Part shown: piece after piece, positions 22,870 through 46,533 of the stretch
Layout: each line of letters begins with the position of its first letter
Numbering within the stretch: position 1 is the stretch's first letter
IMG/VR virus record: IMGVR_UViG_3300029305_000620
Strand: one strand, 5' to 3'
Source: an uncultured virus (IMG/VR IMGVR_UViG_3300029305_000620)
Lineage: Duplodnaviria > Heunggongvirae > Uroviricota > Caudoviricetes
Length of the DNA stretch: 64,000 nt
The notes under the pieces: model-generated
Seen by the model: only the letters and a program-made list of their open reading frames with translations
Database searches by the model: none
What the model was told of the DNA's origin: nothing
Program-made: the position numbers and the translations under genes

Positions 22870-22944
22870 TGGTGCACCAGGATGGTGTCGAACCATCTCA
22901 CCCCCGGTTATGAGCCGGATGCTCTTCCGTTGAGCTACTGGTGC
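22870..22944 (-). tRNA. tRNA with CAT anticodon, most like Ile2 (lysidine type)
   Basis: GCACCAG acceptor, TCCGG-CTCATAA-CCGGG anticodon arm, encoded CCA; lacks initiator features (three G-C anticodon pairs, 1-72 mismatch). Confidence 0.8.
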
Positions 22945-23027
22945 ATACGAGCGGCGCTGACGTCCAATTCCCACATAGTCCGCAGCGCCGCCGCTGAAAG
23001 GATGACGGAGGGTGTCCAGGCCTCCGT

Positions 23028-23101
<74 letters not shown>

Positions 23102-25142: not shown

Positions 25143-25273
25143 CGCAAGCTAATTATTAATTTTGGTTTTCGCTTGCAAGCTAATAATACCACGCATTATT
25201 TCACCTGTCAACTACTTTTTCTAAAAATTTTTGAAAATTTTAGCTTGCAAGCGAAACAGACTTGTGATATACT
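25143..25273. promoter_or_regulatory. Divergent lytic/lysogenic promoters with a GCTTGCAAGC operator pair
   Basis: Leftward TTGACA-17-TATTAT (25211-25183); rightward TTGCAA-17-TATACT (25245-25273); 17-bp inverted operator copies at 25167-25183 and 25240-25256. Confidence 0.8.
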
Positions 25274-25296
25274 GTCCGCAAGGAGGTGATACCACC

Positions 25297-25644
25297 ATGA
25301 AGGATCGAATCCGCAGGGTCCGCAAAGATCTCAATATGAATCAGACCGAGTTCGGCAATGAGATTGGAGTAACCTTCGCGGCGCTGTCCAAATATGAATC
25401 CGGGAAGGTCATTCCAGACAAATCTATCCGACTGCTGATCTGTCAGAAGTTCAACGTGAACGAGTCCTGGCTGGAGACGGGCGAGGGCGTGCCTTATAAG
25501 GAAGGTCTGATCCCTGCGCTGGCAAATGCGCTGCAGGCCATGCCTGATGTCGCCGCCGCCCTGGAGCGTGTCCTGCCCCGGCTCACCCCCCAGGATCTTG
25601 CCAACCTGAACGAGCTGATCAAGCACGCCTTCCCGGAGGAATAA
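25297..25644 (+). CDS. CI-like XRE repressor (no S24 peptidase domain)
   Basis: HTH_3 (RIRRVRKDLNMNQTEFG...SKYESG), WLETGEG. Confidence 0.88.
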   Translation: MKDRIRRVRKDLNMNQTEFGNEIGVTFAALSKYESGKVIPDKSIRLLICQKFNVNESWLETGEGVPYKEGLIPALANALQAMPDVAAALERVLPRLTPQDLANLNELIKHAFPEE

Positions 25645-28056: not shown

Positions 28057-29205
28057 ATGACCTGCCGCAAATGCTCCCGCGCTCTCCCGGAGGGCGCTGT
28101 GTTCTGCCCTGCATGCGGTGTTCGCCAGCAGCGACGCCAGCAGAATCCCAAGTCCAAGGGGAATGGTACTGGCAGCATCTATAAGGATGCCTCCCGTTCC
28201 GGCTGGGTCGTGGCCTACACCACCGGAAAAAAACTTGTCCGTCTGCCCGACGGCACGATGAAGCTTCGTCTTGATCGTCACAAAAAAACCGGCTTCCCCA
28301 CCAAGAAGGCCGCAAACGAATATCTTGCCCAGGTGATCGCCTCCGGCGAAGCCCGGCACATCAAGAAGGTTCCCACCGTCGCGCAGCTGTACGATCAGTA
28401 CGAAAATGCTCCCGGCAAAAAGCCGGGAGCCTCCACCCTGACTGCGTATCGTACCGCCTATAATCGCCGTATCGGTCCTGCCATCGGTGATCTTGAAATT
28501 GATGTCGTTACCCTCCAGCACCTTGAAGGGATCGTCCATGGCCTGACCTACGATCCCGCCAAGGACGTGAAGGACCTCATGTCCAAGTTGTTCCAGCGCG
28601 CCATGGCAGATGGCTTTGTGCAGATCAATCCCTGCACGCTTCTTTCCCTGCCGGAGAAAACCAGCACGGAGATCCCCGCATGGCAGCCGGATGAGATCGA
28701 GCGCCTCTGGCATGCCTGGGATGGGGGAGACCGCATCGCCGCCACTTGCCTGCTCATGATCCACACCGGCATGATGCCCGGTGAGCTGTTCAAGCTTAAA
28801 TCTGATATGATCAACTGGGATGCCCGCACCATCATCGGCTGCGGCCTCAAAACGAAGGAGCGCAAGGAGAAGCCTATCGTTTTCCCTTCGGTGATCGACC
28901 CTGTCCTCCGGGATCTGTGCGATACGTCCGTTTCTCGCCAAGGCTATGTCCTGGGCATTAACAAGGACAAATACTACGATCTTTTCTCCCGGATGAAGAA
29001 TTCTTTGCACATCCGCCCCGAAGTCCGTCCGTATTCTTCCCGCCACTCCACCGCTACGGAGCTGGAGCTGCTGGGTGTTTCTCCGTCCGTCATCGCCTCT
29101 GTCCTGCGTCACAAATCCTACGCCACTACCGCCAAGCATTACATCGACATTACCACGGACAAATCCCGCGCAGCTGTCGATCTTATTTCCCGCAAGCCTG
29201 AGTAA
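28057..29205 (+). CDS. int: Tyrosine integrase with N-terminal zinc ribbon
   Basis: CxxC..CxxC, GNGTGSIYK arm domain, TGMMPGEL, YSSRHS, LRH...TAKHY; adjacent att. Confidence 0.9.
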   Translation: MTCRKCSRALPEGAVFCPACGVRQQRRQQNPKSKGNGTGSIYKDASRSGWVVAYTTGKKLVRLPDGTMKLRLDRHKKTGFPTKKAANEYLAQVIASGEARHIKKVPTVAQLYDQYENAPGKKPGASTLTAYRTAYNRRIGPAIGDLEIDVVTLQHLEGIVHGLTYDPAKDVKDLMSKLFQRAMADGFVQINPCTLLSLPEKTSTEIPAWQPDEIERLWHAWDGGDRIAATCLLMIHTGMMPGELFKLKSDMINWDARTIIGCGLKTKERKEKPIVFPSVIDPVLRDLCDTSVSRQGYVLGINKDKYYDLFSRMKNSLHIRPEVRPYSSRHSTATELELLGVSPSVIASVLRHKSYATTAKHYIDITTDKSRAAVDLISRKPE

Positions 29206-29459
29206 TGGGAGCAATAGTGGGAGCAATAGGACGCAATTCCTATCTAAACGTACCCAAATGTGACAAATCACCAAACATCCAACCACAAACAAAAATAGCC
29301 GCAAACCCTTGAAAACAGCGGGTTTGCGGCTATTTAGCGCAGATGGAGAGATTCGAACTCTCGCACCGGTTATCCCAGTCTACTCCCTTAGCAGGGGTTG
29401 CAAGAATCCAGTAAAATCAAGGGATTGAGGTGTCACAGGGAGCAATGTGGGAGCAATAG
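29206..29459. other. attP-like site: tRNA-Ser(GCT) 3' half flanked by integrase arm repeats
   Basis: TGGGAGCAATAG x2 at 29206-29229, GGGAGCAAT and TGGGAGCAATAG at 29438-29459; core 29337-29397; hairpin 29293-29335. Confidence 0.85.
29337..29397 (-). pseudogene. 3' fragment of tRNA-Ser(GCT) (att core)
   Basis: CCCCTGCTAAGGGAGTAGACTGG...GAGAGTTCGAATCTCTCCATCTGCGC; tRNA structure stops within the anticodon stem, no D-arm. Confidence 0.85.
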
Positions 29460-29551
29460 ATATTTTTCTCCACGCTGTTTCCCAAAGCAAGTATATCATG
29501 ATTTTCTCCTTTTGACAATGGAAAAACCGCCCCTTTCGGGGCGGCTGGGTG

Positions 29552-30385
29552 TCAGTTATGCTTCACAATGTGCTTCACATATTCCTCCACCTTGTTGTCC
29601 TTGGCGTCAGGATCTTCGATGAAGCACTTTGCCAGGTGTGCGTAGAAATCTGGCTTGTCCACGCCGAACTTCTTTCCTACCTTGTGGAAGTCAGCATACA
29701 TGGCGTTCATGGCCCAGAAGAACTCCAGCAGCCTCTGCTGGCCGGTGATTCCCATGTTCATGGCGTATTGCTGCGCTTGATGCCAGGTATACTTTCCGCC
29801 CCTCACGCCTTCGCCGTCCTCCATGTCCTCCACCCATCTCATGACTGTATCCTTATCCAGGCCGTTTTCGCTTGCCTGCTGGAAGCCGATCTGCCGCGGC
29901 TGTTGGAAATGTTCCTTCCCGTCGCGCTGATCCAGGGGATCGGTCTTGTGCATGAAGTAGCTGACGTTTCCGTATCCGCCGTCGGGCCGATTGTAGTTGA
30001 TCTCTCCAGCGGACGTTTTTCCGTCAGTCATCCGGCGCATTTCGCTATCGTTGCGCTTTTCTTCCTGCCGGCGGTACACTTCCGGCTGTCCGCCGTATGG
30101 ATTCTGCCCATCGGGCTGATCTTCCATCCTCCGCATCCGGCTATCATCCAGATACGGAGGCATGTGTGGTTCCGGCCAGTAATGAGATGTTGCACCGCCC
30201 TGCTCCATACGTCCGTAGTTACCCTGGTTACCTTCCATGTAACGTCCGCGGGAATCACGGCGCCGGCGCATTTCCGGCGCATCCATCATGTTCATCTGGT
30301 CGCCTTCCATGTATCTGCCACGGGAGTCGCGCTGACCGGCTCTTGCCATTGCCATCATACGCATGCCGCTGGACATCTTGCCCAT
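29552..30385 (-). CDS. Cargo operon gene 5: Met/Gly/Arg-rich protein with RDSRGRYMEG repeats and a helical C-domain
   Basis: 277 aa; FFWAMNAMYADF...FYAHLAKCFIEDPDA. Confidence 0.75.
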   Translation of the reverse strand: MGKMSSGMRMMAMARAGQRDSRGRYMEGDQMNMMDAPEMRRRRDSRGRYMEGNQGNYGRMEQGGATSHYWPEPHMPPYLDDSRMRRMEDQPDGQNPYGGQPEVYRRQEEKRNDSEMRRMTDGKTSAGEINYNRPDGGYGNVSYFMHKTDPLDQRDGKEHFQQPRQIGFQQASENGLDKDTVMRWVEDMEDGEGVRGGKYTWHQAQQYAMNMGITGQQRLLEFFWAMNAMYADFHKVGKKFGVDKPDFYAHLAKCFIEDPDAKDNKVEEYVKHIVKHN

Positions 30386-30399
30386 AACGTCACCTCCCC

Positions 30400-30822
30400 T
30401 TACGCAACGCGGATCAGCGTCAGGCTGGCCGCATTAACGGTGATTTCATCAGCGCCAACATTGGCAAGGCCCACGGTGATGGACGCGCCGCAAGGCACGC
30501 GCACCAGGGCTGTGGTCGCCAGCTGCGCCACATCGTCCGCCGCGGTGATGGTCTCGGCCATGGTTGTTCCTGCCAGCGCCTCGCCATTGGTGGTGATCGC
30601 CAGGGTCGCAACCGTGCCGGCAACCGCCGACGTGACCTGAGTGCCAACGCCTACCAGGTAGATGCCGGGACGGGAGATAAGGAACTGACCGCTGCCGTCC
30701 TCATGGGTGAGCCAGCCGCCGTTGCAGTAGCAGGAATTGTTCGTGCGTGCGCGGGATCCGGGGAACAGTACATTCGCGCCGGCCGCAACAGCAACAGGGA
30801 TCGTCACAAAAGCGTTAATCAT
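30400..30822 (-). CDS. Cargo operon gene 4: beta-rich protein resembling the BclA C-terminal/C1q fold
   Basis: GSGQFLISRPGIYLV...NAASLTLIRVA. Confidence 0.6.
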   Translation of the reverse strand: MINAFVTIPVAVAAGANVLFPGSRARTNNSCYCNGGWLTHEDGSGQFLISRPGIYLVGVGTQVTSAVAGTVATLAITTNGEALAGTTMAETITAADDVAQLATTALVRVPCGASITVGLANVGADEITVNAASLTLIRVA

Positions 30823-30907
30823 AGTATTTCTCCTTTCAAAAACAGGGGCGGATATTCTCCGCCCCTTTGTGGTTGTGGGGAATGGCGGAGCGCCAAACTA
30901 TCCCGGA

Positions 30908-31648
30908 TTATGCGAAGTTGTTGCAGCTGCCGTTGTAGCCGTAGCCGACGCCCAGCGGGTTGCCGTAGCAGCAGTTGGGGTTGGGCACGACGTAGGCAGG
31001 CACGGGGCAATCGCGGCCCAGACGGCGGATCAGCTCTGCGGTCTGCGCGTCCTGGTTCGCGGTGATGAAGGCGTTCTGCTGTGCCTGAGAGGCCGCAAAC
31101 TTCAGCGCCTGGTTCTCCGCGGTCAGGGTGCTGATCTTATCGGTGGTCAGGAAGTCCAGGATCGCGCGGGTGTTGGCGTTCTGGTTATCCATCAGGTCGC
31201 GGGTGGCGTTCTGAATCAGGTTGCGGGTGTCGCACGCCTGAGTGGCCATGTCATAGCGCACCTGGGCGATGGCGGCACGGTTCTCGCAGCAGCAGTCGGA
31301 AATCTGGTGAGACAAATCACACAGGCCGCGATCCACGCCGTGGAAGCCATTGGTGATGGTGCCGGTCAGCGCGTAGGTCGCGTCAGCGATGCCCTGCTGG
31401 ATGGCAGTGATACCGCTGGTGATGTTGTTGAGGGCAAAACCCTCGTTGATGTCCGCACGGGTGGCCATGCCCTGTATGCCAGCGCCGCCACCGAAGCCGC
31501 CAAATCCTCCGAAGCCCAGACCGCCGCCCAGTAGCGCGATCAGCAGCAGGATGCCCAGCCAGCCGCCGGAGCCACCGCCGAACCAATCACCGCCGGAGTT
31601 GTTGTTGTCCTGACCCATGGCGTAACCCATGGCAAAATTCTCGTCCAT
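30908..31648 (-). CDS. Cargo operon gene 3: Gly-rich hydrophobic N-terminus, CCC motif, coiled coil
   Basis: GGWLGILLLIALLGGG, DINEGF, CCCENR, PVPAYVVPNP. Confidence 0.8.
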   Translation of the reverse strand: MDENFAMGYAMGQDNNNSGGDWFGGGSGGWLGILLLIALLGGGLGFGGFGGFGGGAGIQGMATRADINEGFALNNITSGITAIQQGIADATYALTGTITNGFHGVDRGLCDLSHQISDCCCENRAAIAQVRYDMATQACDTRNLIQNATRDLMDNQNANTRAILDFLTTDKISTLTAENQALKFAASQAQQNAFITANQDAQTAELIRRLGRDCPVPAYVVPNPNCCYGNPLGVGYGYNGSCNNFA

Positions 31649-31733
31649 AAAATTCTCCTTTCTTCTGCGATCGCAGAATTTTTCTTTGCGATCGCGTATC
31701 TATGCTAAAGGCCGCGTGCACTCAGCCCTTGCA

Positions 31734-31997
31734 TCACTTGATGCCCAGCCTCTCGATCAGTGCCGGGATGGTCACGCCGCGCTTTGCGGCGAGGTTCTGG
31801 ATGATGCCGGTGACCGCTTGCGGTGCATTCCCGCTGATGATCTGCATCGCCTGCATGACCGTGGGGTCTTTTTTGGCGAGCTTCGGCAGCACGTCCTGCG
31901 GGCGCTTGCCGGATCGCATGGCATCCATCAGGGTCTTCATGGTGTTATTCGTCGGATTCTGTTGCGGGCTTTGCCTTCCGAACAGGCTGCTTGCCAT
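31734..31997 (-). CDS. Cargo operon gene 2: small Gln/Met-rich helical protein
   Basis: 87 aa, coupled to the upstream gene. Confidence 0.7.
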   Translation of the reverse strand: MASSLFGRQSPQQNPTNNTMKTLMDAMRSGKRPQDVLPKLAKKDPTVMQAMQIISGNAPQAVTGIIQNLAAKRGVTIPALIERLGIK

Positions 31998-32349
31998 TTG
32001 CGATCATCTCCTTCAGTTCGTCGAATTCCTGCCGGGTGACGTATTCCGTCTGCTGAGTCGGTGCTGCCTCCTGCATCGGGGCAAAGGTATACGCCGCAAT
32101 GGTCGGGTATCCGCCAGCGTCCGTCCTCTTGATATACATCACGTCACGGTCTGCATCAAACAGGGCGGCTACGCTGTTGGGGGCCAGAGGGTACGCCTTC
32201 GCGCCCTCCATGCCGGTCACCTGGATCAGGCCCGGTGCTGTCTGCTGCTGGGGGATCGGGGCCATCGGCGTGTAGTAATTGCGGGCCGGTGCCTGGGGCT
32301 GCTGGTACTGCATCGGGTAGGGATTGCCGTAGATAGGCTGGTTGAACAT
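31945..32349 (-). CDS. Cargo operon gene 1: Gln/Pro-rich protein
   Basis: VTGMEGAKAYPLAPNS...YIKRTDAGG...EYVTRQEFDEL. Confidence 0.75.
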   Translation of the reverse strand: MFNQPIYGNPYPMQYQQPQAPARNYYTPMAPIPQQQTAPGLIQVTGMEGAKAYPLAPNSVAALFDADRDVMYIKRTDAGGYPTIAAYTFAPMQEAAPTQQTEYVTRQEFDELKEMIANGKQPVRKAKPATESDE

Positions 32350-32401
32350 GTTGCATCGCCTCCTTGCACCAAAATTGTCCCATAATTCGCCGTTTTTCAC
32401 G

Positions 32402-32451
32402 ATGAAAGGACGGTGCAACCTCTGGGCAAGGAAAGTGCAAATTCCGTGCAA
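32402..32451 (-). promoter_or_regulatory. Five TTGCAC-like boxes with 11-bp periodicity upstream of the cargo operon
   Basis: TTGCAC, TTGCAC, TTGCCC, TTGCAC, TTTCAT at 32451, 32440, 32429, 32418, 32407. Confidence 0.7.
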
Positions 32452-32453
32452 CA

Positions 32454-32481
32454 TAAAAAAGCCCACCCCGTAGGGTGGGCC
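32454..32481 (-). terminator. Terminator after the lysis/HTH genes
   Basis: GCCCACCCTACGGGGTGGGCTTTTTT. Confidence 0.75.
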
Positions 32482-32487
32482 TGATGG

Positions 32488-32673
32488 TCAAAGTATCTTC
32501 TTTTTGTTCCGCTGCACGACGTACTTCACGCCACGGGCGCTCATGCCGACTTCTTCTGCCAGCGCCTCATAGGTGATTCCGTCGATCAGCTTGCGGGCCA
32601 TGATCTGCCTGTCCCGCTTGGAGTGGATGCGTTCCCGGATGTTGTTCGCAAGGGTGCTGTTGTCAATGTCCGT
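32488..32673 (-). CDS. Small sigma-region-4-like HTH protein; ACG at the start position
   Basis: (M)DIDNSTLA...RDRQIMARKLIDGITYEALAEEVGMSARGVKYVV; RBS GGGGGTGA, in-frame TGA just upstream. Confidence 0.65.
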   Translation of the reverse strand, partial: TDIDNSTLANNIRERIHSKRDRQIMARKLIDGITYEALAEEVGMSARGVKYVVQRNKKKIL

Positions 32674-32688
32674 CGCGCATCACCCCCT

Positions 32689-33051
32689 TTACATCAGCGG
32701 CGTCTGCGGTTCCTCGTCCTCATCGGACGTCTCCTCATCGTCGGGCAGCTCATCAGTATTTTTGTGCTTTCCCCACTCGCCGAAGTGCATCTTCACGGTG
32801 GCCTCAATCATATTTCGGTCAATGGTATATCCGCGCTCCATCAGCTGCGCTTCGACATAGGCCAGCTTATCCTCGCCGTGGCCGGAACCATAGAGCTGCT
32901 CGGCTGCAAAGCACAGCGTGCGGTAGAGTCCCGCCAGGGCCTCCTGCTGCTGGACGCTGGCCTTGGCCTTTATCCACGGGATGACAAAGGCGGTAATGAC
33001 AGCCGCCAGCAGGGCGATGATGGCGTTGAACAGGTTAGTCAGATCAATCAT
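32689..33051 (-). CDS. Holin (LL-H-like)
   Basis: N-terminal TM, AAEQLYGSGHGEDKLAYV, IEATV. Confidence 0.8.
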   Translation of the reverse strand: MIDLTNLFNAIIALLAAVITAFVIPWIKAKASVQQQEALAGLYRTLCFAAEQLYGSGHGEDKLAYVEAQLMERGYTIDRNMIEATVKMHFGEWGKHKNTDELPDDEETSDEDEEPQTPLM

Positions 33052-33066
33052 GGTGTTTCTCCTTTC

Positions 33067-33321
33067 TTACTCGACAACACGCCAGTCAGTAGCAAGCATG
33101 TCGCTCTGAGAGGCAAGCCAGCCCAGCTGCACACCGCTGGTTCCAACAAACGCAAATGCCTGATTGCCAATCGCGTCATGGTTCGCATTGACAATTTCTC
33201 CCTTAGCGTTCATATACGAGATGTTGGTGGCAAGCTCGACATACTGGTTCTTTCCGTTCCAACCGCTGCGGGCGATACGCGCACCCTGCTTGGCCATGTT
33301 GATAGCGTTTCCGAAATTCAT
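33067..33321 (-). CDS. DUF2829 / Tad2-like anti-Thoeris sponge protein
   Basis: MNFGNAI...GARIARSGWNGK...GWLASQSDMLATDW. Confidence 0.75.
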   Translation of the reverse strand: MNFGNAINMAKQGARIARSGWNGKNQYVELATNISYMNAKGEIVNANHDAIGNQAFAFVGTSGVQLGWLASQSDMLATDWRVVE

Positions 33322-33336
33322 GTTAATTCTCCTTTC

Positions 33337-33588
33337 TTACCAGTCGGCGATGCACTGGTTCTCAAACTTCTTGTAGGCATCAATGTACCACTCTTTCTTG
33401 TCTCCATTATAGGTGACTTCGTAGTACATGCCATCAGACAGTGTGGTCGAAATCAGATACTTCCAGTTCTGAAGGATCTTGCTTTTCCATACGATGAACA
33501 CACCGAATGTGGTGGCAGTATCCGACTTATCCAGGTGCTTGTTAGCATAGTCTCTGACAAGACTCATTGCCTTTACGTCCATGTCCAT
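33337..33588 (-). CDS. DUF6275-like protein
   Basis: VFIVWKSKILQNWKYLISTT..DGMYYEVTYNGDKKEWYIDAYKK. Confidence 0.7.
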   Translation of the reverse strand: MDMDVKAMSLVRDYANKHLDKSDTATTFGVFIVWKSKILQNWKYLISTTLSDGMYYEVTYNGDKKEWYIDAYKKFENQCIADW

Positions 33589-33670
33589 CGGATTGTTTCT
33601 CCTTTCTAGCTTAAAGAATCTGCATATTTATTGTCTTAGATTGTGCAGTTAGTTTGTAAATAAGGCAAAT

Positions 33671-33979
33671 TTACGTCACAACTTCCCACTCATCGACTTC
33701 CTTTTTGATCTTGTCGATAAATGAGTTTCCCTTCAACGCCTTGTACGCCTTGTAGAGCAGCAGGAAGTTCTCGTACTCGTACTGCCGGATGGTTTTCTTT
33801 TCCCGGTTGTGGTAGTAGATCGTCAGCATCTCATTGCGCAGCAGGCACTTGACGCCGTTGCAGATCATGATGACCGCCGCCAGGACCGGAGCCAGCGCGG
33901 TCAGTTCCACAGCGATGGCGGGCCAGTTTTCGATGATCGTCTGCACAATGCCTATGGTGTTATCCAATGGAACCACCAC
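33671..33979 (-). CDS. Holin-like/membrane lysis-module protein
   Basis: One TM; GVKCLLRNEM...YKAYKALKGNS. Confidence 0.6.
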   Translation of the reverse strand: MVVPLDNTIGIVQTIIENWPAIAVELTALAPVLAAVIMICNGVKCLLRNEMLTIYYHNREKKTIRQYEYENFLLLYKAYKALKGNSFIDKIKKEVDEWEVVT

Positions 33980-34883
33980 CCTCCATCGCCGTCAGGCGTT
34001 CATTTAGGTCTTCAACCTTTTCCTCGATGGAAAGAGTTTCCCAACGGTCCGAGGGCTCCTGCGGGCCGTCAGGGGCTTCCACGGGCTTGTCCTCGTCCTC
34101 GTCATCGTCCGGCTCATCGTCTTCCGTCTGCCGCAGGGCATTGAGCGTCAGCGGACCGGCGATGCCGTCAGGCTTCAAACCACGGTCATGCTGGAAGGCC
34201 CGAACGGCACTCAGGGTCTCGCTGCCGTACTTGCCGTCGATCAGAGGCGTTCCGTCCTTCTTCTTGCCCACGTCGTACCCTTCGCGGACAAGCGCTTCCT
34301 GCAGCTCCTTCACGTCCTCGCCGCTGTCACCCTTGCGCATCGTGCGCGGAGGAATCTCGATGACGTTCGGCGGAAGATCATAGTCCACCTTGACCATCTC
34401 TCCGCCGATCTTGACCAGCAGTTCGCCCCACTCATCCCACGCGGACAGCTTGCTTTCGACAACGCCTGTCCGCGTCCCCTGGGCCTCAATGACGGTATCC
34501 ACGCCGTACTTGCCCTCGCCGACGTACATGCCGACGTGTGTACGCTTGCCGTCGGTGTTCTGATAGACCGCCGTGCCGGGATAGATTTCCATGCGGCCAC
34601 CCACAGCCCCGCGATGTGCGGGGTCTGTGTAGGTGTTCCACATGGTATTGGAGCCGTGGTATATGTACGCGCCCAGCTCATTCGCCGCCCAACGGAAAAG
34701 TCCGGAGCAGTCTGCCACGCGCTTCCCGACCCATTGCTGACCATGCTGGACTGTCATCTCACGGGTGGCGGAATCCTGCTCTTTCTGCGTCCAGATACCG
34801 CCGGATTCGCCCCAGATGTAGCCCCAGCGCTCGTCACGGGCTTGTCGGAACAGGCGGCAAAGGTCTGATGCCTTGATGGTCAT
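33960..34883 (-). CDS. Endolysin: NlpC/P60-like catalytic domain + peptidoglycan-binding domain
   Basis: GYIWG, ADCSGL, HVGMYVG; GDSGEDVKELQ..L...DGKYG..T..AVRAFQ..GLKPDGIAG. Confidence 0.88.
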   Translation of the reverse strand: MTIKASDLCRLFRQARDERWGYIWGESGGIWTQKEQDSATREMTVQHGQQWVGKRVADCSGLFRWAANELGAYIYHGSNTMWNTYTDPAHRGAVGGRMEIYPGTAVYQNTDGKRTHVGMYVGEGKYGVDTVIEAQGTRTGVVESKLSAWDEWGELLVKIGGEMVKVDYDLPPNVIEIPPRTMRKGDSGEDVKELQEALVREGYDVGKKKDGTPLIDGKYGSETLSAVRAFQHDRGLKPDGIAGPLTLNALRQTEDDEPDDDEDEDKPVEAPDGPQEPSDRWETLSIEEKVEDLNERLTAMEGGGSIG

Positions 34884-35288
34884 TTAGACCACCTCCCACC
34901 CTGCCGGATACTGCTCCGGGGTGTACACGTTCGCGTCGATCAGGGACTTGTACAGCACATCGCCCCACCAGCCGTGCTCGTCCTTGCTGAACGCCGTGCC
35001 AGCCGTGATGGTCTCCGGGATGATTCGGTAGCCCTGCTTGTAGGCGATGTCCTCCCACAGGGTCGGGGCGTTGTCCGGGTTGTTCTGCTCCGTGTCCCAC
35101 AGGTCGGAGGCGGCGCGCTTGATCGTGCCGTGCCAGTTGATGCGCGTGCCAGCGCGGACGAGGGAGCCGTCCTGCTTGAGGGCCGGGAAAAGCTCTGCCG
35201 CGTTGCTGGCGGACGCATCATCAAGGGAGGCCGATGCCTGTACGATGTAGGGGCGCAGCTTCCGCGCCTTGTTGATGTACTCGCTCAT
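34884..35288 (-). CDS. Carbohydrate-binding (CBM5/12-like) tail-associated protein
   Basis: NPDNAPTLW; LYKSLIDANVYTPEQYPAGW. Confidence 0.65.
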   Translation of the reverse strand: MSEYINKARKLRPYIVQASASLDDASASNAAELFPALKQDGSLVRAGTRINWHGTIKRAASDLWDTEQNNPDNAPTLWEDIAYKQGYRIIPETITAGTAFSKDEHGWWGDVLYKSLIDANVYTPEQYPAGWEVV

Positions 35289-35519
35289 TTATTCCGCCTC
35301 CCCCACAAGGATGTCGTATGCCTTGGCCTTCGCTTCAACCTCGGACAGGTCGGTGACTTCCTCCGGCATGACCTCGCCCTCGGTGTAGACCCTGCCGGAA
35401 TCCAACGGGTCGATGGCCTCGGAGTAGGAAACGCCGTCACGCACCACGAAACGGTTGGAGTCGCTGTAGGTGCGGATGAAGTCACGGTTTCGGATGGTTA
35501 CTCGCTCGGTGATAATCAT
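35289..35519 (-). CDS. Small tail-fibre-associated protein
   Basis: IRTYSD...GVSYSEAIDP...YTE. Confidence 0.6.
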   Translation of the reverse strand: MIITERVTIRNRDFIRTYSDSNRFVVRDGVSYSEAIDPLDSGRVYTEGEVMPEEVTDLSEVEAKAKAYDILVGEAE

Positions 35520-35531
35520 GGTCGCACCTCC

Positions 35532-36641
35532 TTAATATGCCTTGATGTAGTCAGCGTAGGTTGCCCAGTTGGTCGCCGCAATCCACTCGTCGTAGAGGGC
35601 CGCAGGGACACGGATTTCGCAGTCGGCGGGGATGCCGGTGAATGCGTTTGTATTTGCCAGCGACGGTACTGCTGTGTGAGCTGTGAAATCGTAGAAAGCA
35701 ACGCCATTGCAACCGTAGAAAGACCTCGCTTCGATAGAGATGACTTGCGCTGGGACGATCACGGATGCAAAACTGGAGCAGGAAGAGAAAACTGAGTTTC
35801 GATATGATGTAACGCCTCTCTCTGGATAAGACACGAAAGACAAGCCGTAACAATTTGCAAACTGGTTCGACATAGTTGCCATTACAGTTTCTCCGGTCGG
35901 AACTGTAATATATTTCAGCCCAGTGCATCCGTAGAAAGTATATGCTCCTTGCAAAACAACATTGGCGGGGATCGATACGGATGCGAGGCTGATACAGCTA
36001 TGGAAAGCAACGCCTTCAAGTTGAACATTTGCGCCTATTTCAGCTTTACGGACTGCATAAAGGTAATTTTTATTGCGGTTGTCCGAACTTTCTGAGTGCC
36101 GCAAAACACAGGAACCACCTGTGCCTGTCATACCAAGAAGTCCCATCTCGCCATCCACCGTCAACCGGATAACGTAATCACCCGGCGCGGCGTATGCATG
36201 TTCCGGTGTCCACTTGGTCGTGCTTATATCCGTACCCGTCAGCACATTCGGCTCCGTCCCATCGCCCCAGTCCACCGTTACCGTGCCATTCACACCCACG
36301 CCCAGCATGGGGCTGGTGCGGCCTTCCTGCAAGGTGATATACAGGCGGGTCGTGCCGTCATCGGTGGTGTACATCGCACCGATATTCATGGCGCGGGTCA
36401 GGCCCTTCACGCCCTCCAGCGACCAGTTCCAGCCCTGAAACACAAGCCCGGGATGCTCCGGGCCAGCAGGGAGTTCGGACAGGGCTTGCGCTTCTGCTAC
36501 CGTGTAGGCATGAACGCAAGTGCCGTCGTAGTCGTAGAAGTTGACCTCCTTGGGACTGACACCAGCAGACCCGCCGCCCGAGCCGGAGGAGCCCCCGCCA
36601 CTACCGAACAGCGTTGCCATGATCAAGTCTTTTCCGACCAT
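35532..36641 (-). CDS. BspA-type leucine-rich-repeat protein (putative receptor binding)
   Basis: AFxxCxxLxxVxIP repeats, VDWGDG, IRVPAALYDEWIAATNW. Confidence 0.8.
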   Translation of the reverse strand: MVGKDLIMATLFGSGGGSSGSGGGSAGVSPKEVNFYDYDGTCVHAYTVAEAQALSELPAGPEHPGLVFQGWNWSLEGVKGLTRAMNIGAMYTTDDGTTRLYITLQEGRTSPMLGVGVNGTVTVDWGDGTEPNVLTGTDISTTKWTPEHAYAAPGDYVIRLTVDGEMGLLGMTGTGGSCVLRHSESSDNRNKNYLYAVRKAEIGANVQLEGVAFHSCISLASVSIPANVVLQGAYTFYGCTGLKYITVPTGETVMATMSNQFANCYGLSFVSYPERGVTSYRNSVFSSCSSFASVIVPAQVISIEARSFYGCNGVAFYDFTAHTAVPSLANTNAFTGIPADCEIRVPAALYDEWIAATNWATYADYIKAY

Positions 36642-36645
36642 CTCA

Positions 36646-36873
36646 TCACCCCCTGAACTTCGTCCACACGCCCGACGGACTCAGCATGTACCCCACGCTC
36701 AGGTCGGCGGTGTAGGCGAAGGAACCGGGCGCAGGCTTGACGGTCTTTTTGCCGTCGCTCACGACCTCGCCCATGCCGGTGATGTCGGATTCCGCATCCG
36801 CCAGGATGGTGCATTCGACCTCCGGGGGAATCTTGCTGCGCACGATCTTGGGCTCAATGATTTTCAGTGCCAT
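36646..36873 (-). CDS. Small protein preceding the LRR gene
   Basis: 75 aa; APGSFAYTAD...YMLSPSGVW; AAGGAG RBS. Confidence 0.65.
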   Translation of the reverse strand: MALKIIEPKIVRSKIPPEVECTILADAESDITGMGEVVSDGKKTVKPAPGSFAYTADLSVGYMLSPSGVWTKFRG

Positions 36874-36911
36874 AGGTTATCCACTCCTTTTTGTTCGTTG
36901 GGTAAGCCACG

Positions 36912-36944
36912 AAAAAAGCGCCCTGCCGCAATGGCAAAGCGCTT
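36912..36944 (-). terminator. Terminator after the MuF/ncRNA unit
   Basis: AAGCGCTTTGCCATTGCGGCAGGGCGCTTTTTT. Confidence 0.7.
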
Positions 36945-36958
36945 ATGTATGTTGTTGT

Positions 36959-37115
36959 TTATGCGGGGGAGAATTTGCATCTCCCATGACAAGACACTCC
37001 CGTCCTAACCGTGCCCTGCGCGGTCAGCTATTTCGCTGTGGTTACGCGCCGATGGAGTCGAACCATTAGGCCTGTCTATCTGCAAATAGCGTCTACCTAT
37101 TCCGCCACCGCATAA
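36959..37115 (-). ncRNA. Extended tRNA-like RNA with two alternative 3' halves
   Basis: Leu-type D-arm GTGGCGGAATAGGTAGACGC; inner T-arm plus CCA ending at 37039; outer T-like arm and 8-bp terminal stem. Confidence 0.55.
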
Positions 37116-37129
37116 TATCATCCTCTGTC

Positions 37130-37330
37130 TTATTCGGGTTGGTAGAAGTCGCACTTCTCGCCCTTCCAGAGCACGCCCGGGGGCTTGTCGCTGTAGACCG
37201 AGCAGGTGCCGTACTTGTACCGTTCCACCTTTTCACCCATCACTTCGATGGGCCTGAGACGGTGCTTGCACGTCCGGCAGGGGATGTCGTTCCCAGGCTC
37301 CGTCGTGCGGATGATCTCATCCTTCTCCAT
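37130..37330 (-). CDS. Small Cys-rich protein after MuF toxin (candidate immunity/partner)
   Basis: CRTCKH...C..Y.DKP..V....KCDFY; GGAGG RBS. Confidence 0.65.
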   Translation of the reverse strand: MEKDEIIRTTEPGNDIPCRTCKHRLRPIEVMGEKVERYKYGTCSVYSDKPPGVLWKGEKCDFYQPE

Positions 37331-37392
37331 TGCGTGGCCTCCTCCGTTCAGAATGTCATATTATACCACGTTTTGAGCGCCCACGCAACACC

Positions 37393-39837
37393 TTATTGAC
37401 CGACAACATCCACGTCAACAAAGAGCTTGTGGCCCACCTTCTCGACCTTGGTGATCTTGTAGCTTGTGCCGCGCTGCAGGATGACCTCGAACTCATAGCC
37501 GAAGCCGCTCTGCCCGGACTTGCCGTCCCAACTCGGGGACTTCGCACCGTGTCCGTATGCGGAGAATGGTTCTGCATAGATCATCTTGGTGCCCTTGGGC
37601 GCGTAGATGTTAAGGATCAGACGGCCACCGAATCCGCTGCCCTTCGCTGCTGCCGCGGATGTGAATGCCTCATCCTTCACGACCTTGCCCACAAGCATCT
37701 GTTTGAGCTCTGCCTCGGATGCATCAAGCATCTTCTGCGGGATGCCCAGGAAGCCAGCCGCGCCGGGGTCGCTTTCCACGCCGCGTTGCAGCCAGATGTC
37801 GAAGTTGTACTTGCTCTTGTTGATGAGGTCGGTCATGTGCTGGATCGCCGCGCCGCTGCCCTCATAGTCGAGGTCAACCTTGCCAACACCCTTGAAGAAG
37901 CTGTTGCTCCAGCCGCCCGCATAGCCGCGCAGAGGGCGGTTGAAGGGGCCGCTGCCCGACGTGTACTTGTAGACCGCCTGACGCTCTGCAAGCGGCGCAG
38001 AGGCCCACAGCGTGCCGGTATCGGGGCGCAGCACCTTGTCTGCGCGGGGCTTCGCATCGTTGCCCGTAAACCAGTATGCCTTATCCTTGCGAGCCTTGGA
38101 GAACTTGTCATCCTCCAGCATGTAGCGCTTGCGCACAGCAGCCAGCTCATCGGTCAGGTCAAGCAGCTTCTTCTCCAGCTTCGCGATCTCTGCCGGATCG
38201 CCAACCGTGTCGGACAGCTTTTCGAGGGTGTCCTTGAACAGCTGCTTCTTGTAGTACGGGACGCTTGCATCCATCAGGCCCTTCATGGTCAGCTCGCCGT
38301 AGCTATCGACGAACTTCTTGATCGTGTCAACCTCCATATCAGGCGTGATGGTTTGGTACGCCTCAATGAGCTTCTTCTGGTCGAAGTTCTTGACCTTCGT
38401 GCCCATGGAGACCTTTTTCTTCTTGGTCAGCCCGGCGATCTTGGCAGTCAGATCGTCGATGTCCTTCTGCATCTTGTCCGGGTCAATGCCGCGAATCTTC
38501 ATGACTTCCCGGCTTGCCGCCTTGAGCTTCTCCGTCGCATCATCCAGCGCCTTGCCCAGCGTGGTGTACTTATCCTTGGCCAGCAGGTACTTCTTGCCCG
38601 CGGCCTCGAACTCATCGCACAGGTCGAGCATGTCCTGCTTGCTGTTGGCCTGGAAGTAGGCGCGCTTGGCAGGCAGGCGGTCTTTGAGGGTTTCGTAGTC
38701 CTTCGCAGTGACCGGGTTCTTCCAGATGTTCACGAACTGCTTGGAGTCGATCTGCTGCATCTCATCCTCAGCGGCTTTGCAGTCCGCTTTCAGCTTCGTA
38801 TGCTCGCTCATCAGCTGCATTTCCTTCTGGCGTGCCAGTTCCTCCGGGGTAGGCCCAGAGGATGGGAAGTGCCGCCCGGTGGCCTTGAAGAACTCCGCAT
38901 CCGTCATGAGCCTGCGGGAAGCGCGGCACCGGCAGTTGCAGTCATGCCCGGCCACACCGCTGCAGCCAGGGCAGGAGGCGAAGTTGCCGTCCTTGAGGTC
39001 GAACTTCTCATCCGCCAGCACCACCTGTCCATTGAGGATCATGTGGTTCGCGCTGGATTTCGAGATGCCCCGCTTCCAGCCCTTCTTGGACTTGCGGACG
39101 TACTGCGGGCGGACGCGCTCGTCCCCCATGTTCTTCCACGTCTTGGTCATTCTCAGGCCCGAGGTGCCGTCCTGCAGCGCCTTGTCCACCGCAACGCCTG
39201 CATCATCGTTGCCGGCTTCCCGGACGCGGTGAGCCTCCGTGCGGGCAATCAGCACGGCGTTCTTGTAGGGGCCGTTCTCCTTGTCCAGTGCGGTGGTGAT
39301 CCTCTTGGCGATGGTGGAGTACCTGTCGCCGTTCATGAGGCCGATGCCGACCGCCTGCCGGATGTCGTAGATAATCGTCTTGTGGTTTTTCAGCAGCGCA
39401 ACTTCCATGTGGGGGTTGCTGACCGCCGCCTTGATCTGCTGCGGTGTGATCTGAACGACCTCTGAAAAGGTTTCACCCAGGTCTGCACCCTTGGCCACCT
39501 TCTCAACGCCCTGCACCATGCTCTGGTAGCTGAGCTCGTAGACTTCCTCGACCAGCGCATGCAGCTCCTTGGCCACCTTGGGGGTCGCCACACCGATGCG
39601 CTTCTCGATCTCCGCCAGGAAGCGTGCGTCATAGCCCTTCGCCTGAAGGTCAGCAAAGGACAGTGTGCCGTCTCCCTTGGCAAATTTCTCGTGCACCTCT
39701 CCGACGTAGGCTTTCAGATCCTTCAGCAGGGACTTGAATATCTTGTGGATTTCTTTTTCCGCGCCAGCTTCCCGGTGTGCTGCGATTCTCCGGGCCTGGG
39801 CCTCATACCACTCAAGGTCTTTCGCCATGCCCGTCAC
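37393..39837 (-). CDS. MuF minor head protein fused to a VIP2-like ADP-ribosyltransferase
   Basis: IARTEAHR, KTW, DERVR, NCRC (MuF); YT.GS..FN..LR, LQRG, FTSAA, EFEVILQRG (ART). Confidence 0.85.
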   Translation of the reverse strand: MTGMAKDLEWYEAQARRIAAHREAGAEKEIHKIFKSLLKDLKAYVGEVHEKFAKGDGTLSFADLQAKGYDARFLAEIEKRIGVATPKVAKELHALVEEVYELSYQSMVQGVEKVAKGADLGETFSEVVQITPQQIKAAVSNPHMEVALLKNHKTIIYDIRQAVGIGLMNGDRYSTIAKRITTALDKENGPYKNAVLIARTEAHRVREAGNDDAGVAVDKALQDGTSGLRMTKTWKNMGDERVRPQYVRKSKKGWKRGISKSSANHMILNGQVVLADEKFDLKDGNFASCPGCSGVAGHDCNCRCRASRRLMTDAEFFKATGRHFPSSGPTPEELARQKEMQLMSEHTKLKADCKAAEDEMQQIDSKQFVNIWKNPVTAKDYETLKDRLPAKRAYFQANSKQDMLDLCDEFEAAGKKYLLAKDKYTTLGKALDDATEKLKAASREVMKIRGIDPDKMQKDIDDLTAKIAGLTKKKKVSMGTKVKNFDQKKLIEAYQTITPDMEVDTIKKFVDSYGELTMKGLMDASVPYYKKQLFKDTLEKLSDTVGDPAEIAKLEKKLLDLTDELAAVRKRYMLEDDKFSKARKDKAYWFTGNDAKPRADKVLRPDTGTLWASAPLAERQAVYKYTSGSGPFNRPLRGYAGGWSNSFFKGVGKVDLDYEGSGAAIQHMTDLINKSKYNFDIWLQRGVESDPGAAGFLGIPQKMLDASEAELKQMLVGKVVKDEAFTSAAAAKGSGFGGRLILNIYAPKGTKMIYAEPFSAYGHGAKSPSWDGKSGQSGFGYEFEVILQRGTSYKITKVEKVGHKLFVDVDVVGQ

Positions 39838-39852
39838 ATCCCTTCACCGTGG

Positions 39853-41382
39853 TTATTCCTCGTCCTCATCGTCCGGGGCCTGCTTGCGCTGGAAGGGGGT
39901 GTTCTGCCCGCCTTCCTCGTCCTCCCCGAACATCAGGGACGGCATGCTGTCACGTTCTTCCTCGATCAGCTGCATAACGTAGTCCACATCGTCCACGAAG
40001 GACAGCTGCGCGTAGGCAACAGCCTTGGGCAGACCGGCAGCAACAAGCGCCTGCACGTTTGCAGCCTCGCCCTGCACATCCACAGGGAAGTTGCGGCGGA
40101 AGTCCATCACAACCTGCAGCGGGTCGATCTTGATGGTCTTCTTCGCCCAGGCTTTCGACAGCAGCGTGAACATGTAGGTGCCGGCAGAGATCATCTTGGC
40201 CTCGAACATGCCGCACTTGGTTTCCAGGCCGGTCAGCTTGAACTTGAGGGAAACGCCGGAAGCCGTGCCGAAGGATTCATCGGACATGTTCGGAGTCTTG
40301 GAGAAGCGGTAGATGTTCTCCTCCAGGCGGTCAAGGTGATGCTCGATGAAGGTGTCGTTGATTTCCTTGGTTAGGAAGCAAATATCTGCATCGGATACGC
40401 CGTTGGACTGAATCTCAAAGGAACCAGCCGCCTGTGCCGCCTGCCTCTCCTTCTCATCCAGGTGCACGTTCTTGAACACCATGTATGCGTTGGCGAAAGC
40501 GTCCGCCTCGTTGGAGTTGTCGGACAGCGCCCGGTCATACGCATCAATGAGGGTCAGAACCTTCTCCGCGTCGCCCTTGAGCTCCAGGTTGTTGGGAATG
40601 CCCTGGAGAGGACAGCCGTCGAACAGATTGGGCTCGTTCTTCACCTCGTGAAGGTCGCTCACGTTTCCGCCCTCGTAGTAGTGGATGAGGCCGTCGTCGT
40701 AGAACTCCGCCTTGACTACATCGTTGTCGCTGATGTCCTTGGTCGTGTAGTAGCGCACGCCGTATGTAGGGTGGGTGATGTCGCGGGTCTTGGAGAGGAT
40801 GATGCACTCATTCGGGGGCACCACCATCACGCGCTCGTCGCCTTCCTTGTCGATGTAGAACAGGCGGCCCGCATAGCCGCAGATGGCTGCATACTTGGTG
40901 CATTCCATATCCACGTCGAACATGTTGGATCGGGTTACAAAGTCGGTGATGACCTTGCTGGCCGCGTCCACGGCTGCCTTCTGCTCCGCGTCGTTGTCGC
41001 CCGCGTCGCCGGTGTCCTCCTGGCTCTCATCGGTGACGGAATAGCTGTAGCCGATGGGGTTGCCGGCGAAATAGCCCGTTTTGAAGTCGATGATCTCCGA
41101 GAAGAAGTCGTTGTTCAGCTTGTGGTTGATAGCATCGTCGCTGTCACTAAAGCGGGGCGTGCGGCCGAAGATCGGCACACCGTCTGCCAGGGCTTCGTAT
41201 CGGTCAATCAGCGTCTTGTTGTATTCCGCGTTGTCCCGGTGCTTTTCGATGATCCGCCGCAGCAGGGCATCGGAAATGCCGTCCTTTTCCAGCGCCTCGA
41301 TCTCTGCGGTGTAGTCCGGGTATTTTTCCACCCGCATGCGCACCGGGTGCTCCATGTGGCGCATCTTGAATGCTTCGCTCAT
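39853..41382 (-). CDS. SPP1-type portal protein (phage B)
   Basis: GYFAGNPI, LIDAYDRALSD, GTASGVSLKFKL. Confidence 0.9.
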   Translation of the reverse strand: MSEAFKMRHMEHPVRMRVEKYPDYTAEIEALEKDGISDALLRRIIEKHRDNAEYNKTLIDRYEALADGVPIFGRTPRFSDSDDAINHKLNNDFFSEIIDFKTGYFAGNPIGYSYSVTDESQEDTGDAGDNDAEQKAAVDAASKVITDFVTRSNMFDVDMECTKYAAICGYAGRLFYIDKEGDERVMVVPPNECIILSKTRDITHPTYGVRYYTTKDISDNDVVKAEFYDDGLIHYYEGGNVSDLHEVKNEPNLFDGCPLQGIPNNLELKGDAEKVLTLIDAYDRALSDNSNEADAFANAYMVFKNVHLDEKERQAAQAAGSFEIQSNGVSDADICFLTKEINDTFIEHHLDRLEENIYRFSKTPNMSDESFGTASGVSLKFKLTGLETKCGMFEAKMISAGTYMFTLLSKAWAKKTIKIDPLQVVMDFRRNFPVDVQGEAANVQALVAAGLPKAVAYAQLSFVDDVDYVMQLIEEERDSMPSLMFGEDEEGGQNTPFQRKQAPDDEDEE

Positions 41383-41522
41383 TTCTTCTTACCTCTTTTC
41401 CGGCTCAGTGCGCCCGGCAGCTCCTTGTCGAGCATCACCTTGCCGTCGATCAGGCTCACCGTCAGCCCGCAGCGGGGGCACACGCGCACCTTGTTGATGG
41501 TCTTCCAGATATGTTTGCACAT
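41379..41522 (-). CDS. Small CxxC protein between TerL and portal
   Basis: MCKHIW...CPRCG; coupled ORF. Confidence 0.55.
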   Translation of the reverse strand: MCKHIWKTINKVRVCPRCGLTVSLIDGKVMLDKELPGALSRKRGKKK

Positions 41523-44098: not shown

Positions 44099-44285
44099 GT
44101 AACCACTCCCTTGTCTTGTGTATAGAAAAAGCCCGCCCGCACCTAATTTCTACCCTGCGTACTAAACGCAAGCCTTCGATGCGAGGGGGCTTTTTGACCT
44201 ATTTTGATATGCTATATAATAGCACGGGTTGATGTACAGCGGTTGTACAATTTTCGATAGTGCGTGTACATTTTTTCGCACTATT

Positions 44286-45213: not shown

Positions 45214-45618
45214 TCAGGTCGGGCCGGAGCCCAGGAGCATGTAGTCTGCACTATGCAGCATGCTCTCCAAAGACGGCTCCAGGCTGTTGGAATAGCCGTA
45301 TTTCTGTGTCGCTTTGCATATTCTCTCCGCAGCCTCTTTTTCCTGCTTGCCCGGTTTCAGGAAAGCGTTCAACAGGCCGCTTGCTTCCCAGTGCATCGCG
45401 CTGAGCTTGGCCTTGACCTCGCTGATCGCGGGCGGGAAGGGGCTGGAGCTGATCGCCTTATGTACTGCCATGAGCACGATGTCCGCGGGCATGTCGGCAA
45501 ACTGCACCGCCCAGACGGAAATGGTGCCCATCGCTTCCTCCTGCGTCATGTTCCGGTAGGAATTAGGGTATGCGGCCTTGAGGATCGCCAGGATCGTCGC
45601 CGCTTCCTTCTTGTTCAA
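45214..45618 (-). CDS. Replicative helicase loader/inhibitor (G39P-like)
   Basis: ILAILKAAYP...W...FPPAISE. Confidence 0.7.
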   Translation of the reverse strand: MNKKEAATILAILKAAYPNSYRNMTQEEAMGTISVWAVQFADMPADIVLMAVHKAISSSPFPPAISEVKAKLSAMHWEASGLLNAFLKPGKQEKEAAERICKATQKYGYSNSLEPSLESMLHSADYMLLGSGPT

Positions 45619-46304
45619 TCAAGGTCACCTCCTTTCAATGCGTCCAAGAATGCGTTGCCGCTGTTCCTGCGGGCCTGGGTGGTCTGCTTTTGTGCATCCT
45701 CCCTTGCCCATTTGCGGATGGTAGCCGCGTGGGAGTCGTAGTGCTTGCCGGTGCGCTTCATGTACTCGGAGAGCTTGTTGACCTTGTTCTGCAGGTTCGG
45801 GATTTCGGCCTGCAGCTCCAAATACTCATCATCCGTCAGCATAACATTCCAGTAAAGGCCGTAGGCGCGGGGGGTGTTATCCCCTGATGTTGACGCTCTC
45901 GCTGGAGTTGCCGTTGGAGTTGATGTTGGAGTTGTTGTTGAGGTTGGAGTTGGAGTTGGTTGATTTTGTTGCCCTGTGTTGCCTTGTGTTGGCATGTGTT
46001 GGCATGTGTCAACATGTGTTGGCATGTGTTGGCCATTGTCGGCAAGTGCTTGCTTCTTGGCCGCGCTTGCCTGGCCTGCCTTGCGCCGTTTCTCCACCAG
46101 CTCCTCATACCTGGCAGCATCCCGGTCGATGCTGTTGGCCACAAAGGGCCACACGGCGGCCAGTATGCCGTCCATAGGCGGCACGGTGCCATGCTCCCCA
46201 TATTCCATGATGGCCTCGAACAGGCGGCCCTTGGTCTCGTAGTCAAGCCCCTTGATGGACTGCCCCGTCTCGAAGTAAATCATCACACCGGGTTTCTTCG
46301 CCAT
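45615..46304 (-). CDS. Replication initiator (DUF6291-like N-terminus)
   Basis: KGRLFEAIMEY, IDRD..RYEE, YDSHAATIRKW; internal iteron-like repeats. Confidence 0.75.
   Translation of the reverse strand: MAKKPGVMIYFETGQSIKGLDYETKGRLFEAIMEYGEHGTVPPMDGILAAVWPFVANSIDRDAARYEELVEKRRKAGQASAAKKQALADNGQHMPTHVDTCQHMPTQGNTGQQNQPTPTPTSTTTPTSTPTATPARASTSGDNTPRAYGLYWNVMLTDDEYLELQAEIPNLQNKVNKLSEYMKRTGKHYDSHAATIRKWAREDAQKQTTQARRNSGNAFLDALKGGDLD
45903..46050. repeat. 10-bp (TGTGTTGGCA) and 6-bp (GTTGGA) tandem repeats, candidate replication origin
   Basis: About 8 imperfect 10-mers at 45965-46050; about 9 6-mers at 45903-45960. Confidence 0.7.
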
Positions 46305-46533
46305 TGGTATCACCACCTAAACTGTACTTTTTCACGCGGCACTTCTCGCCGTAGCGGTTGGTCACCGTCACCCATTCGCAGTCGATCTCATAGCCGCTCT
46401 TGCGAAGGTTGGTAATGCGGGAGGCCAGGCGCATCACGCCCAGCTCCGTCAGAGCCTCCAGCTGCGTGATGCTGCCGTGCTTCTCCATATAGGCGAGAAT
46501 GCGGGTGCATTGTGATGGGTTACTGTTCGTCAT
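46243..46533 (-). CDS. Winged HTH protein
   Basis: GSITQLEA...GVMRLASRI..LR..GY. Confidence 0.7.
   Translation of the reverse strand: MTNSNPSQCTRILAYMEKHGSITQLEALTELGVMRLASRITNLRKSGYEIDCEWVTVTNRYGEKCRVKKYSLGGDTNGEETRCDDLLRDGAVHQGA

Follow-up and report, generated by a model that had tools for sequence, protein, structure and literature searches.

The 64,000-nt stretch of DNA analysed here (IMG/VR record IMGVR_UViG_3300029305_000620, from an uncultured member of the Caudoviricetes; called the window throughout) raises the question of whether it represents one phage or two. Profile matches agreed with a first-pass annotation, made from the letters alone, that terminases, portals, helix-turn-helix (HTH) repressors and integrases are each encoded twice in the window, whereas a major head protein and a holin/endolysin set each occur only once. 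We refer to the phage on the left as A and to the one on the right as B. The answer we favour is that A and B are probably two separate phages joined via a shared repeat, the join in the window being an assembly path that short reads cannot verify. The window would then be a walk through two complete, otherwise unrelated temperate phages of animal-gut Clostridia (the samples being animal fecal metagenomes), most molecules of A and B being separate. Two circles that share one exact repeat would yield a figure-eight assembly graph, in which the contig behind the window would have entered the repeat from the A side and left it on the B side. The observed steps are the phage attachment site (attP) of A, the closure of A, the completeness of B, the repeat itself and the uncoupled depths of the two phages.

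The tyrosine integrase of phage A (28057-29205, plus strand, 382 amino acids; PHROG_1 integrase, E = 6.9e-42; Pfam Phage_integrase, PF00589, E = 2.5e-12) has its stop codon ending at 29205, and the first of a set of short repeats begins two bases further on. Exact copies of GGGAGCAAT were found at 29207, 29219, 29438 and 29449, these being the only four in the whole 64-kb window, where about 0.5 would be expected by chance (128,000/4^9). Copies with one mismatch were not enriched (14 matches in the window versus 19 expected). The first two copies are direct repeats on the plus strand and would form the P-arm (29207-29227), and the last two, likewise direct and on the plus strand, the P'-arm (29438-29457). 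The 60-nt core between them (29338-29397, minus strand) is the 3' part of a host tRNA-Ser(GCT), from the anticodon stem to the acceptor end. The core 60-mer had exact matches at 12 loci in Clostridia metagenome-assembled genomes (MAGs), and at 11 of the 12 the tRNA-Ser(GCT) gene was complete, with the 60-mer as its 3' part. ARAGORN called no tRNA at the partial tRNA between the arm repeats, and cmscan (E ≤ 1) did not report the tRNA model there; the identity of the core therefore comes from the MAG matches, both to the 60-mer and to complete tRNA genes, and not from cmscan. At the twelfth locus (L028, CAMFCQ010000020.1) the core was exact, no tRNA was called, and an integrase 49% identical to that of A is encoded, so that this is probably the att junction of a related element. 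The arm motif was present in none of the 12 host loci.

Of 24 public sequencing runs in the form of Logan contigs (k=31), which came from fecal, gut or unspecified metagenomes, we used four (X6, X8, X9 and X10). Contigs of runs X6 and X8 matched the window only over 29337-29397 and diverged on both sides (at 29336/7 and at 29397), which sets the borders of the core and indicates that further core contexts exist in those samples. One contig of run X9, in which B is scarce, spanned 28680-30202 and thus the att site. Tyrosine-integrase phages that target tRNA genes have a core equal to the 3' part of the tRNA gene, so that integration restores the tRNA. The site of A resembles the lambda-type attP of such phages (P4- or P22-like) in that the integrase gene adjoins it, in that its core likewise corresponds to the 3' part of a tRNA gene of the host, and in that direct arm-type repeats lie on both sides. 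It differs from this type in that the integrase has distant relatives only (49% identity, in one Clostridia MAG) and in that the GGGAGCAAT motif and its spacing are particular to phage A, binding to the arms being a prediction. The attP geometry that the first-pass annotation had read here, with a tRNA-Ser core and the same arm repeat on both sides, was thus borne out by the two plus two exact copies and by the occurrence of the core in Clostridia tRNA-Ser(GCT) genes. By its P-O-P' geometry the site appears to be a true attP, because an independent contig closes A into a circle that contains the lysis arm; both flanks of the site lie inside this circle.

The contig in question, 3300022601_000051 (IMG/VR, 36,761 nt), was 100% identical to the window over 30473-36719, continued with 6,402 nt that are absent from the window, then matched the first 1,583 nt of the IMG/VR contig G002 at 99.1%, and finally ran into window positions 1-22529. 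The difference of 0.9% between G002 and the other contigs was confined to this 1.58 kb just left of the window. The new 6.4 kb contain the end of a giant open reading frame (ORF) and genes for proteins of 862, 83, 167 and 92 amino acids. The part of the giant ORF in the new stretch is in frame with the ORF that is open at the start of the window (2-6145, minus strand), which by arithmetic gives a whole of ~3,520 amino acids; it is a single ORF, composed of window 2-6145 plus positions 9806-14980 of L014, and it corresponds to PHROG 22978 (profile length 3,513). Phage A, as put together from the window and 3300022601_000051, would be a circle of ~44.7 kb with the attP inside. Because this contig ties the lysis arm (29.5-34.9 kb) to the giant gene, the arm belongs to A, as had been proposed from the letters alone, and is the end of its late region. 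Neither a tape-measure gene nor a sheath gene was found in phage A, and a search for relatives with the 862-aa protein and the endolysin yielded identical contigs plus one weak match only. The giant protein contains PBECR5 and LPD3 domains (Pfam), in which it resembles the polyvalent proteins of phages and conjugative elements, as far as these are covered by part of Iyer et al. (2017, PMC5512222); it differs in lying outside the A/B joint.

The closure of A also bears on the idea that the attP-like site is a hybrid junction of two prophages sitting in tandem at one att site in the host tRNA-Ser. Tandem integration by the textbook Campbell mechanism does place phage arms on either side of the junction that results, as seen here. 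This explanation is nevertheless very improbable: the sequence to the right passes into B, whose recombinase is of the serine type, and A-type arm repeats do not occur elsewhere; no host gene and no complete tRNA-Ser were present in the window, in G002 or in G003 (a further IMG/VR contig, described below); and A closes on itself via an independent contig. A tandem A-A array would be indistinguishable from a circle, yet it would leave the A/B junction unexplained.

The MuF gene of B is not followed by any head or tail gene in the window, and the first-pass annotation had suggested that B may have lost its morphogenesis genes. A B that is defective or helper-dependent, having lost scaffold, capsid and tail genes and kept terminase, portal and MuF, is hardly credible in view of contig G003 (58,158 nt, linear). 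This contig was 100% identical to the window over 33225-64000 (30.8 kb) and ran 27 kb beyond its right end. The extension first encodes a 520-aa serine recombinase, followed by ~5 kb of small plus-strand ORFs (DUF3846, YodL-like) and then, on the minus strand, endolysin, holin, fibres, baseplate, a 1,212-aa tape measure, sheath, neck, major head protein, decoration protein and scaffold. The terminus of G003 is an 89.7% copy of window 34895-35464. CheckV rates G003 as 100% complete, and loss of the morphogenesis genes is refuted unless G003 is itself a mis-join of two B-like phages. The integrase of B matched PF00239 (Resolvase), PF07508 (Recombinase) and, below its cut-off, the zinc-ribbon PF13408, and is a large serine recombinase. 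The att region of B also appears to be unsplit, and B is predicted, by arithmetic on these contigs, to be a complete, sheathed phage with a circle of ~55.9 kb. Its sheath gene makes it a myovirus-type phage, at variance with the siphovirus morphology first assumed. The second cassette of a leucine-rich repeat (LRR) gene and a 75-aa gene, which had been anticipated next to capsid and tape-measure genes, does exist beside such genes; it lies in G003 to the right of the integrase of B, not in the left flank of the window.

The gene order of B is TerS-TerL-portal-MuF/ADP-ribosyltransferase (ART), cassette, scaffold-capsid-tail-lysis, with everything from the scaffold onward beyond the right end of the window. 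We compared this order with that of relatives at 56 portal-related loci, of which 52 were analysed (window copies left out) and 42 had a MuF match. Scaffold, decoration or capsid genes were found 0.5-5.5 kb past MuF at 33 of these 42 loci. Eight of the other nine had less than 4.7 kb of sequence left, while at the ninth, L039, the C-terminal domain of MuF was a different one, and a 1,681-aa gene and an LRR-like gene were present; farther along its contig (G004) there is a capsid gene 93% identical to that of B, which makes it the 34th case. The presence of head genes after MuF in 34/42 relatives indicates that the slot between MuF and scaffold is a moron site in this lineage and that MuF, cassette, scaffold is the natural order of B.

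The segment through which A and B are joined is a four-gene cassette with homologous members in both phages (window 34895-36873), encoding a 75/92-aa protein, a BspA-type LRR protein, a 76-aa protein and a 134/135-aa protein. The B-type copy was seen independently in L017 (4,444 nt), which carries the capsid, decoration and scaffold genes of B, then the 135-aa, 76-aa and LRR genes, and ends at the match to 36719. Its sequence showed 0 differences from the window over 35338-36719. Over 34895-35340, by comparison, the B-type copy of L017 and G003 differed from the window at 58 positions in 446 nt. The 134-aa and 135-aa proteins are 84% identical, and the 75-aa protein of B is 64% identical over 70 amino acids to its 92-aa homologue in A, the last 24 residues being the same. 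The window therefore contains a hybrid, with the 75-aa end of the B cassette and the 134-aa end of the A cassette. In the window the A-type diverged flank (34895-35337, minus strand) comprises the 134-aa gene and the 3' part of the 76-aa gene. It is followed by the exact repeat common to A and B (35338-36719, minus strand, 1.38 kb), with the rest of the 76-aa gene, the BspA-type LRR_5 gene (35532-36641, minus strand) and the last 24 codons of the 75-aa gene, and then by the B-type N-terminal part of the 75-aa gene (36720-36873, minus strand), the identity to the contig of A stopping at 36719. The first-pass annotation was right that the lysis arm abuts the MuF-portal-terminase genes of B and that the shared cassette of small genes and an LRR gene is the joint. 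It placed the joint at ~36.9 kb, and the switch from A to B appears instead to lie at or left of 36719, within the repeat.

The exact 1.38 kb sit inside flanks of about 64-88% identity, and an identical core inside diverged flanks indicates a recent exchange between A and B. In run X6, one contig (depth 7.5) joined 35520 to 36574, skipping 1,053 nt, i.e. most of the LRR gene, which indicates that a cassette variant without the LRR gene coexists in this sample. The early regions of A and B, at 20.6-21.4 kb and at 48.3-48.9 kb, are also linked by short stretches of 81-95% identity, such as 21345-21387 with 48826-48868, a further and older sign that the two phages have exchanged DNA.

Only four IMG/VR contigs held the centre of the repeat, and the whole repeat was crossed by three of them, once from A to A (3300022601_000051) and twice from A to B (G002 and G003). 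Other contigs stopped at it: L017 at its border (36719), and L001, L016, the right end of G003 and 3300024303_001409 at ~122-127 nt inside. A 40-mer from the repeat centre had 0 matches in metagenome contigs and 0 in genome contigs, and a 40-mer from the B-type flank had 0 matches in metagenome contigs. CheckV put the completeness of G002 at 96% and that of G003 at 100%, though each holds a piece of the other phage.

Sequences of the window were found chiefly in 11 of the 24 runs, all fecal metagenomes from 2018, five of which may be its source, and depth was examined in X6, X8, X9 and X10. In X6, contigs of the A side had depths of 29.2 and 31.2 (the latter over 34878-35495), the repeat (35517-36638) had 41.1, roughly the sum of A and B, and contigs of the B side had 10.3-13.1 (11.9 over 36690-40345), these being single figures per contig that indicate uncoupled abundance and not stoichiometry at the junction. 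In X9 and X10 the depth was about 1-6 on the A side and 0-1.6 on the B side, the uncovered parts being no proof that B is absent. One contig of X9 extended out of the repeat by 323 nt, into the right flank that belongs to A itself, where its loose-end letters matched position 6248 of L014. A coverage step across the joint had been named beforehand as speaking against a fusion, and X6 has one (31/41/12). The equal abundance of A and B expected of a co-integrate was accordingly not found in X6, nor in X9 and X10, where A occurred with B at 0-1.6, though mixtures are possible.

The alternative to two separate phages is a real co-integrate, in which circular A and circular B, as replicative forms with both attP intact, recombined by a single homologous crossover in the 1.38-kb core. 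We regard this as possible but doubtful, and the same holds for the form that it would take, a ~100-kb molecule with each genome flanked by hybrid cassette copies, possibly alongside free A. The window would be junction 1 of this molecule (MuF side of B, core, endolysin side of A). The short-read graph of two circles with one shared exact repeat is the same as that of a single large circle in which the repeat occurs twice, and several observations favour the latter and weigh against the separation of A and B. The record behind the window as well as G002 and G003, which carry other IMG/VR sample numbers, take the same path from the A flank to the B flank, only one contig goes from A to A, and no simple assembler rule predicts such a repeated choice. 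Among the IMG/VR contigs with the repeat centre there was no B-to-B contig, which the two-circle model requires. G003 has an A-type flank at one end and a B-type flank at the other, as a segment of a co-integrate would. The identical core in diverged flanks proves that A and B recombined recently at this very site. A 2,165-nt Logan contig of X8 (34837-36998), whose sequence was of A type through 35189 and then, over 35190-35337, of B type at each of 19 variant positions and at a GCG insertion, ties A-specific sequence through the repeat to the flank of B with a different switch point, and so suggests a second crossover point; given a depth of only ~5 and k=31, this contig is weak evidence and possibly an artefact of the graph. 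Finally, the step in depth would also fit a mix of free A and co-integrate.

On the other side, the reciprocal junction 2 (B-type flank, core, right flank of A) was seen in none of the IMG/VR contigs examined, the second cassette copy adjoining the scaffold gene of B instead. The depths of A and B were uncoupled (31 versus 12 in X6), with A nearly alone in X9 and X10. The evidence that spans the junction is all short-read assembly across a repeat longer than usual inserts, and the samples may come from one campaign. A co-integrate of ~100 kb would also exceed the expected capacity of either capsid, as deduced from the genome sizes, and so would not spread as a phage. A broader version of this proposal seems to us somewhat unlikelier again, namely that two temperate phages of one gut Clostridia host, the one podovirus-like and the other sheathed, fuse time and again by homologous recombination in the shared LRR cassette and that the ~100-kb co-integrate, with both attP intact, is abundant enough to be assembled in several samples. 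We prefer two separate phages because A occurs alone (X9, X10) and its depth is uncoupled from that of B, because A closes on itself and B is complete, and because many contigs break at the repeat while the reciprocal junction is missing. We infer that the hybrid join is not the main physical form.

Chimeric viral contigs are treated in part in PMC3901335. Mosaic temperate phages are known to exchange moron cassettes, and A and B resemble them in that two unrelated phages have one near-identical segment in non-essential slots of their late regions. As with mosaic phages and figure-eight graphs in general, contigs break or switch at the segment shared by A and B. The present case differs by the exactness of the 1.38-kb core in the cassette and by the same cross-genome path in three assemblies.

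Nearly all genes of the window are on the minus strand. Besides the giant ORF, the left part encodes an internal virion protein of A (PHROG/Pfam profile matches), its major head protein (10076-11161), a 704-aa portal, TerL, TerS, an HNH endonuclease and a replication initiator, followed by three tRNAs (Thr, Met and Gly; 22439-23101) and the HTH repressor (25231-25644, plus strand). The distal late and lysis arm of A (29552-34883, minus strand; PHROG and Pfam matches) encodes, all on the minus strand, a DUF7841 protein, a BclA_C-like protein, phrog_16490, a holin (32689-33051), a Tad2-like protein (33067-33321), a DUF6275 protein and an NlpC/P60+PG_binding endolysin (33960-34883). The Tad2-like protein (Thoeris anti-defence 2) has 84 amino acids and a Pfam E value of 1.7e-20. 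In runs X6 and X10, a contig joined 29832 to 34089 with 16 other letters between, and would represent a variant of the arm that lacks or replaces ~4.2 kb including the holin and the Tad2-like gene. No GenBank phage gave a megablast match to 29206-41400; among GenBank phages, the portal of A is at most 52% identical to those of unannotated fecal phage contigs, and that of B is distantly related (38.8% identity) to those of Bacillus phage phi4J1 and its relatives.

On the B side, the cassette is followed by a terminator-like hairpin and T run (36911-36950, minus strand), read from the sequence, for which cmscan gave only a weak match of the small-RNA-terminator style, and by the gene of a 66-aa Cys-rich protein (p66; 37130-37330, minus strand), downstream of the ART domain. 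Between p66 and the terminator lies a tRNA-like stretch (37030-37113, minus strand) with an acceptor/D-arm-like 5' part and GGTTCGACTCC as a T-arm-like part; it was called neither by ARAGORN nor by cmscan (E ≤ 1), and a contig of X9 matched only 37082-37113 and diverged on both sides. Next come the 814-aa MuF head protein fused to an ADP-ribosyltransferase domain (37393-39837, minus strand; Pfam Phage_Mu_F, PF04233, and ADPrib_exo_Tox, PF03496; PHROG 16625/115), the SPP1-type portal (39853-41382, minus strand; Pfam SPP1_portal, E = 1.3e-85; PHROG_64) and, in the right part of the window, TerL, TerS, a methyltransferase and a long early region. The repressor of B (62188-62655, plus strand) and its serine recombinase, which starts at 62985 on the plus strand and runs off the end, close the window. 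Just upstream of the methyltransferase/terminase block, a match to the Rfam DUF3800-VIII RNA was found (44128-44193, minus strand; 46 bits, gathering score 40.2). A repeat with a 10-nt period (TGTTGSCWTG-like; 45957-46046) occurs in seven overlapping copies within a 233-aa gene (45615-46316) and may be an iteron-type origin of phage B.

Other C-terminal domains were found in MuF proteins of relatives. B's MuF-ART protein would qualify as a MuF polymorphic toxin of temperate phages, as described in part in Jamet et al. (2017, PMC5576092): its N-terminal MuF domain is encoded after the portal gene and its C-terminal domain is of a variable toxin type, ADP-ribosyltransferase in B and another in L039. 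The 66-aa Cys-rich protein accompanied the ART C-terminal domain in both relatives having that domain (L046 and L052), and could possibly be an immunity or partner protein. Within the MuF-ART gene, two IMG/VR contigs of different sample numbers, L003 (coming from the right) and L004/G002 (from the left), end at abutting bases, 38600/38601 (amino acids 412/414). The MuF domain and the ADP-ribosyltransferase part meet at this position, which has the look of a point of domain swapping in a polymorphic toxin, with more than one context in those samples. We also considered that the giant protein of A ends in an ART domain, which would explain the breaks at 38600, and rejected this, since there was no Pfam match and no BLASTP similarity to MuF-ART.

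These results show how two complete phages can appear fused or defective in contig catalogues because of a single moron cassette that they share. They also provide a modest but clean piece of biology: the tRNA-Ser attP is intact, its 60-nt core and its arm repeats being defined, and two unrelated temperate phages have very recently exchanged a BspA-type LRR gene, from which it follows that A and B have a host cell in common. A co-integrate, if physical, would offer a direct view of the intermediate of phage mosaicism; and repeated fusion, if true, would provide unrelated phages with a standing intermediate for the trade of late-region genes.

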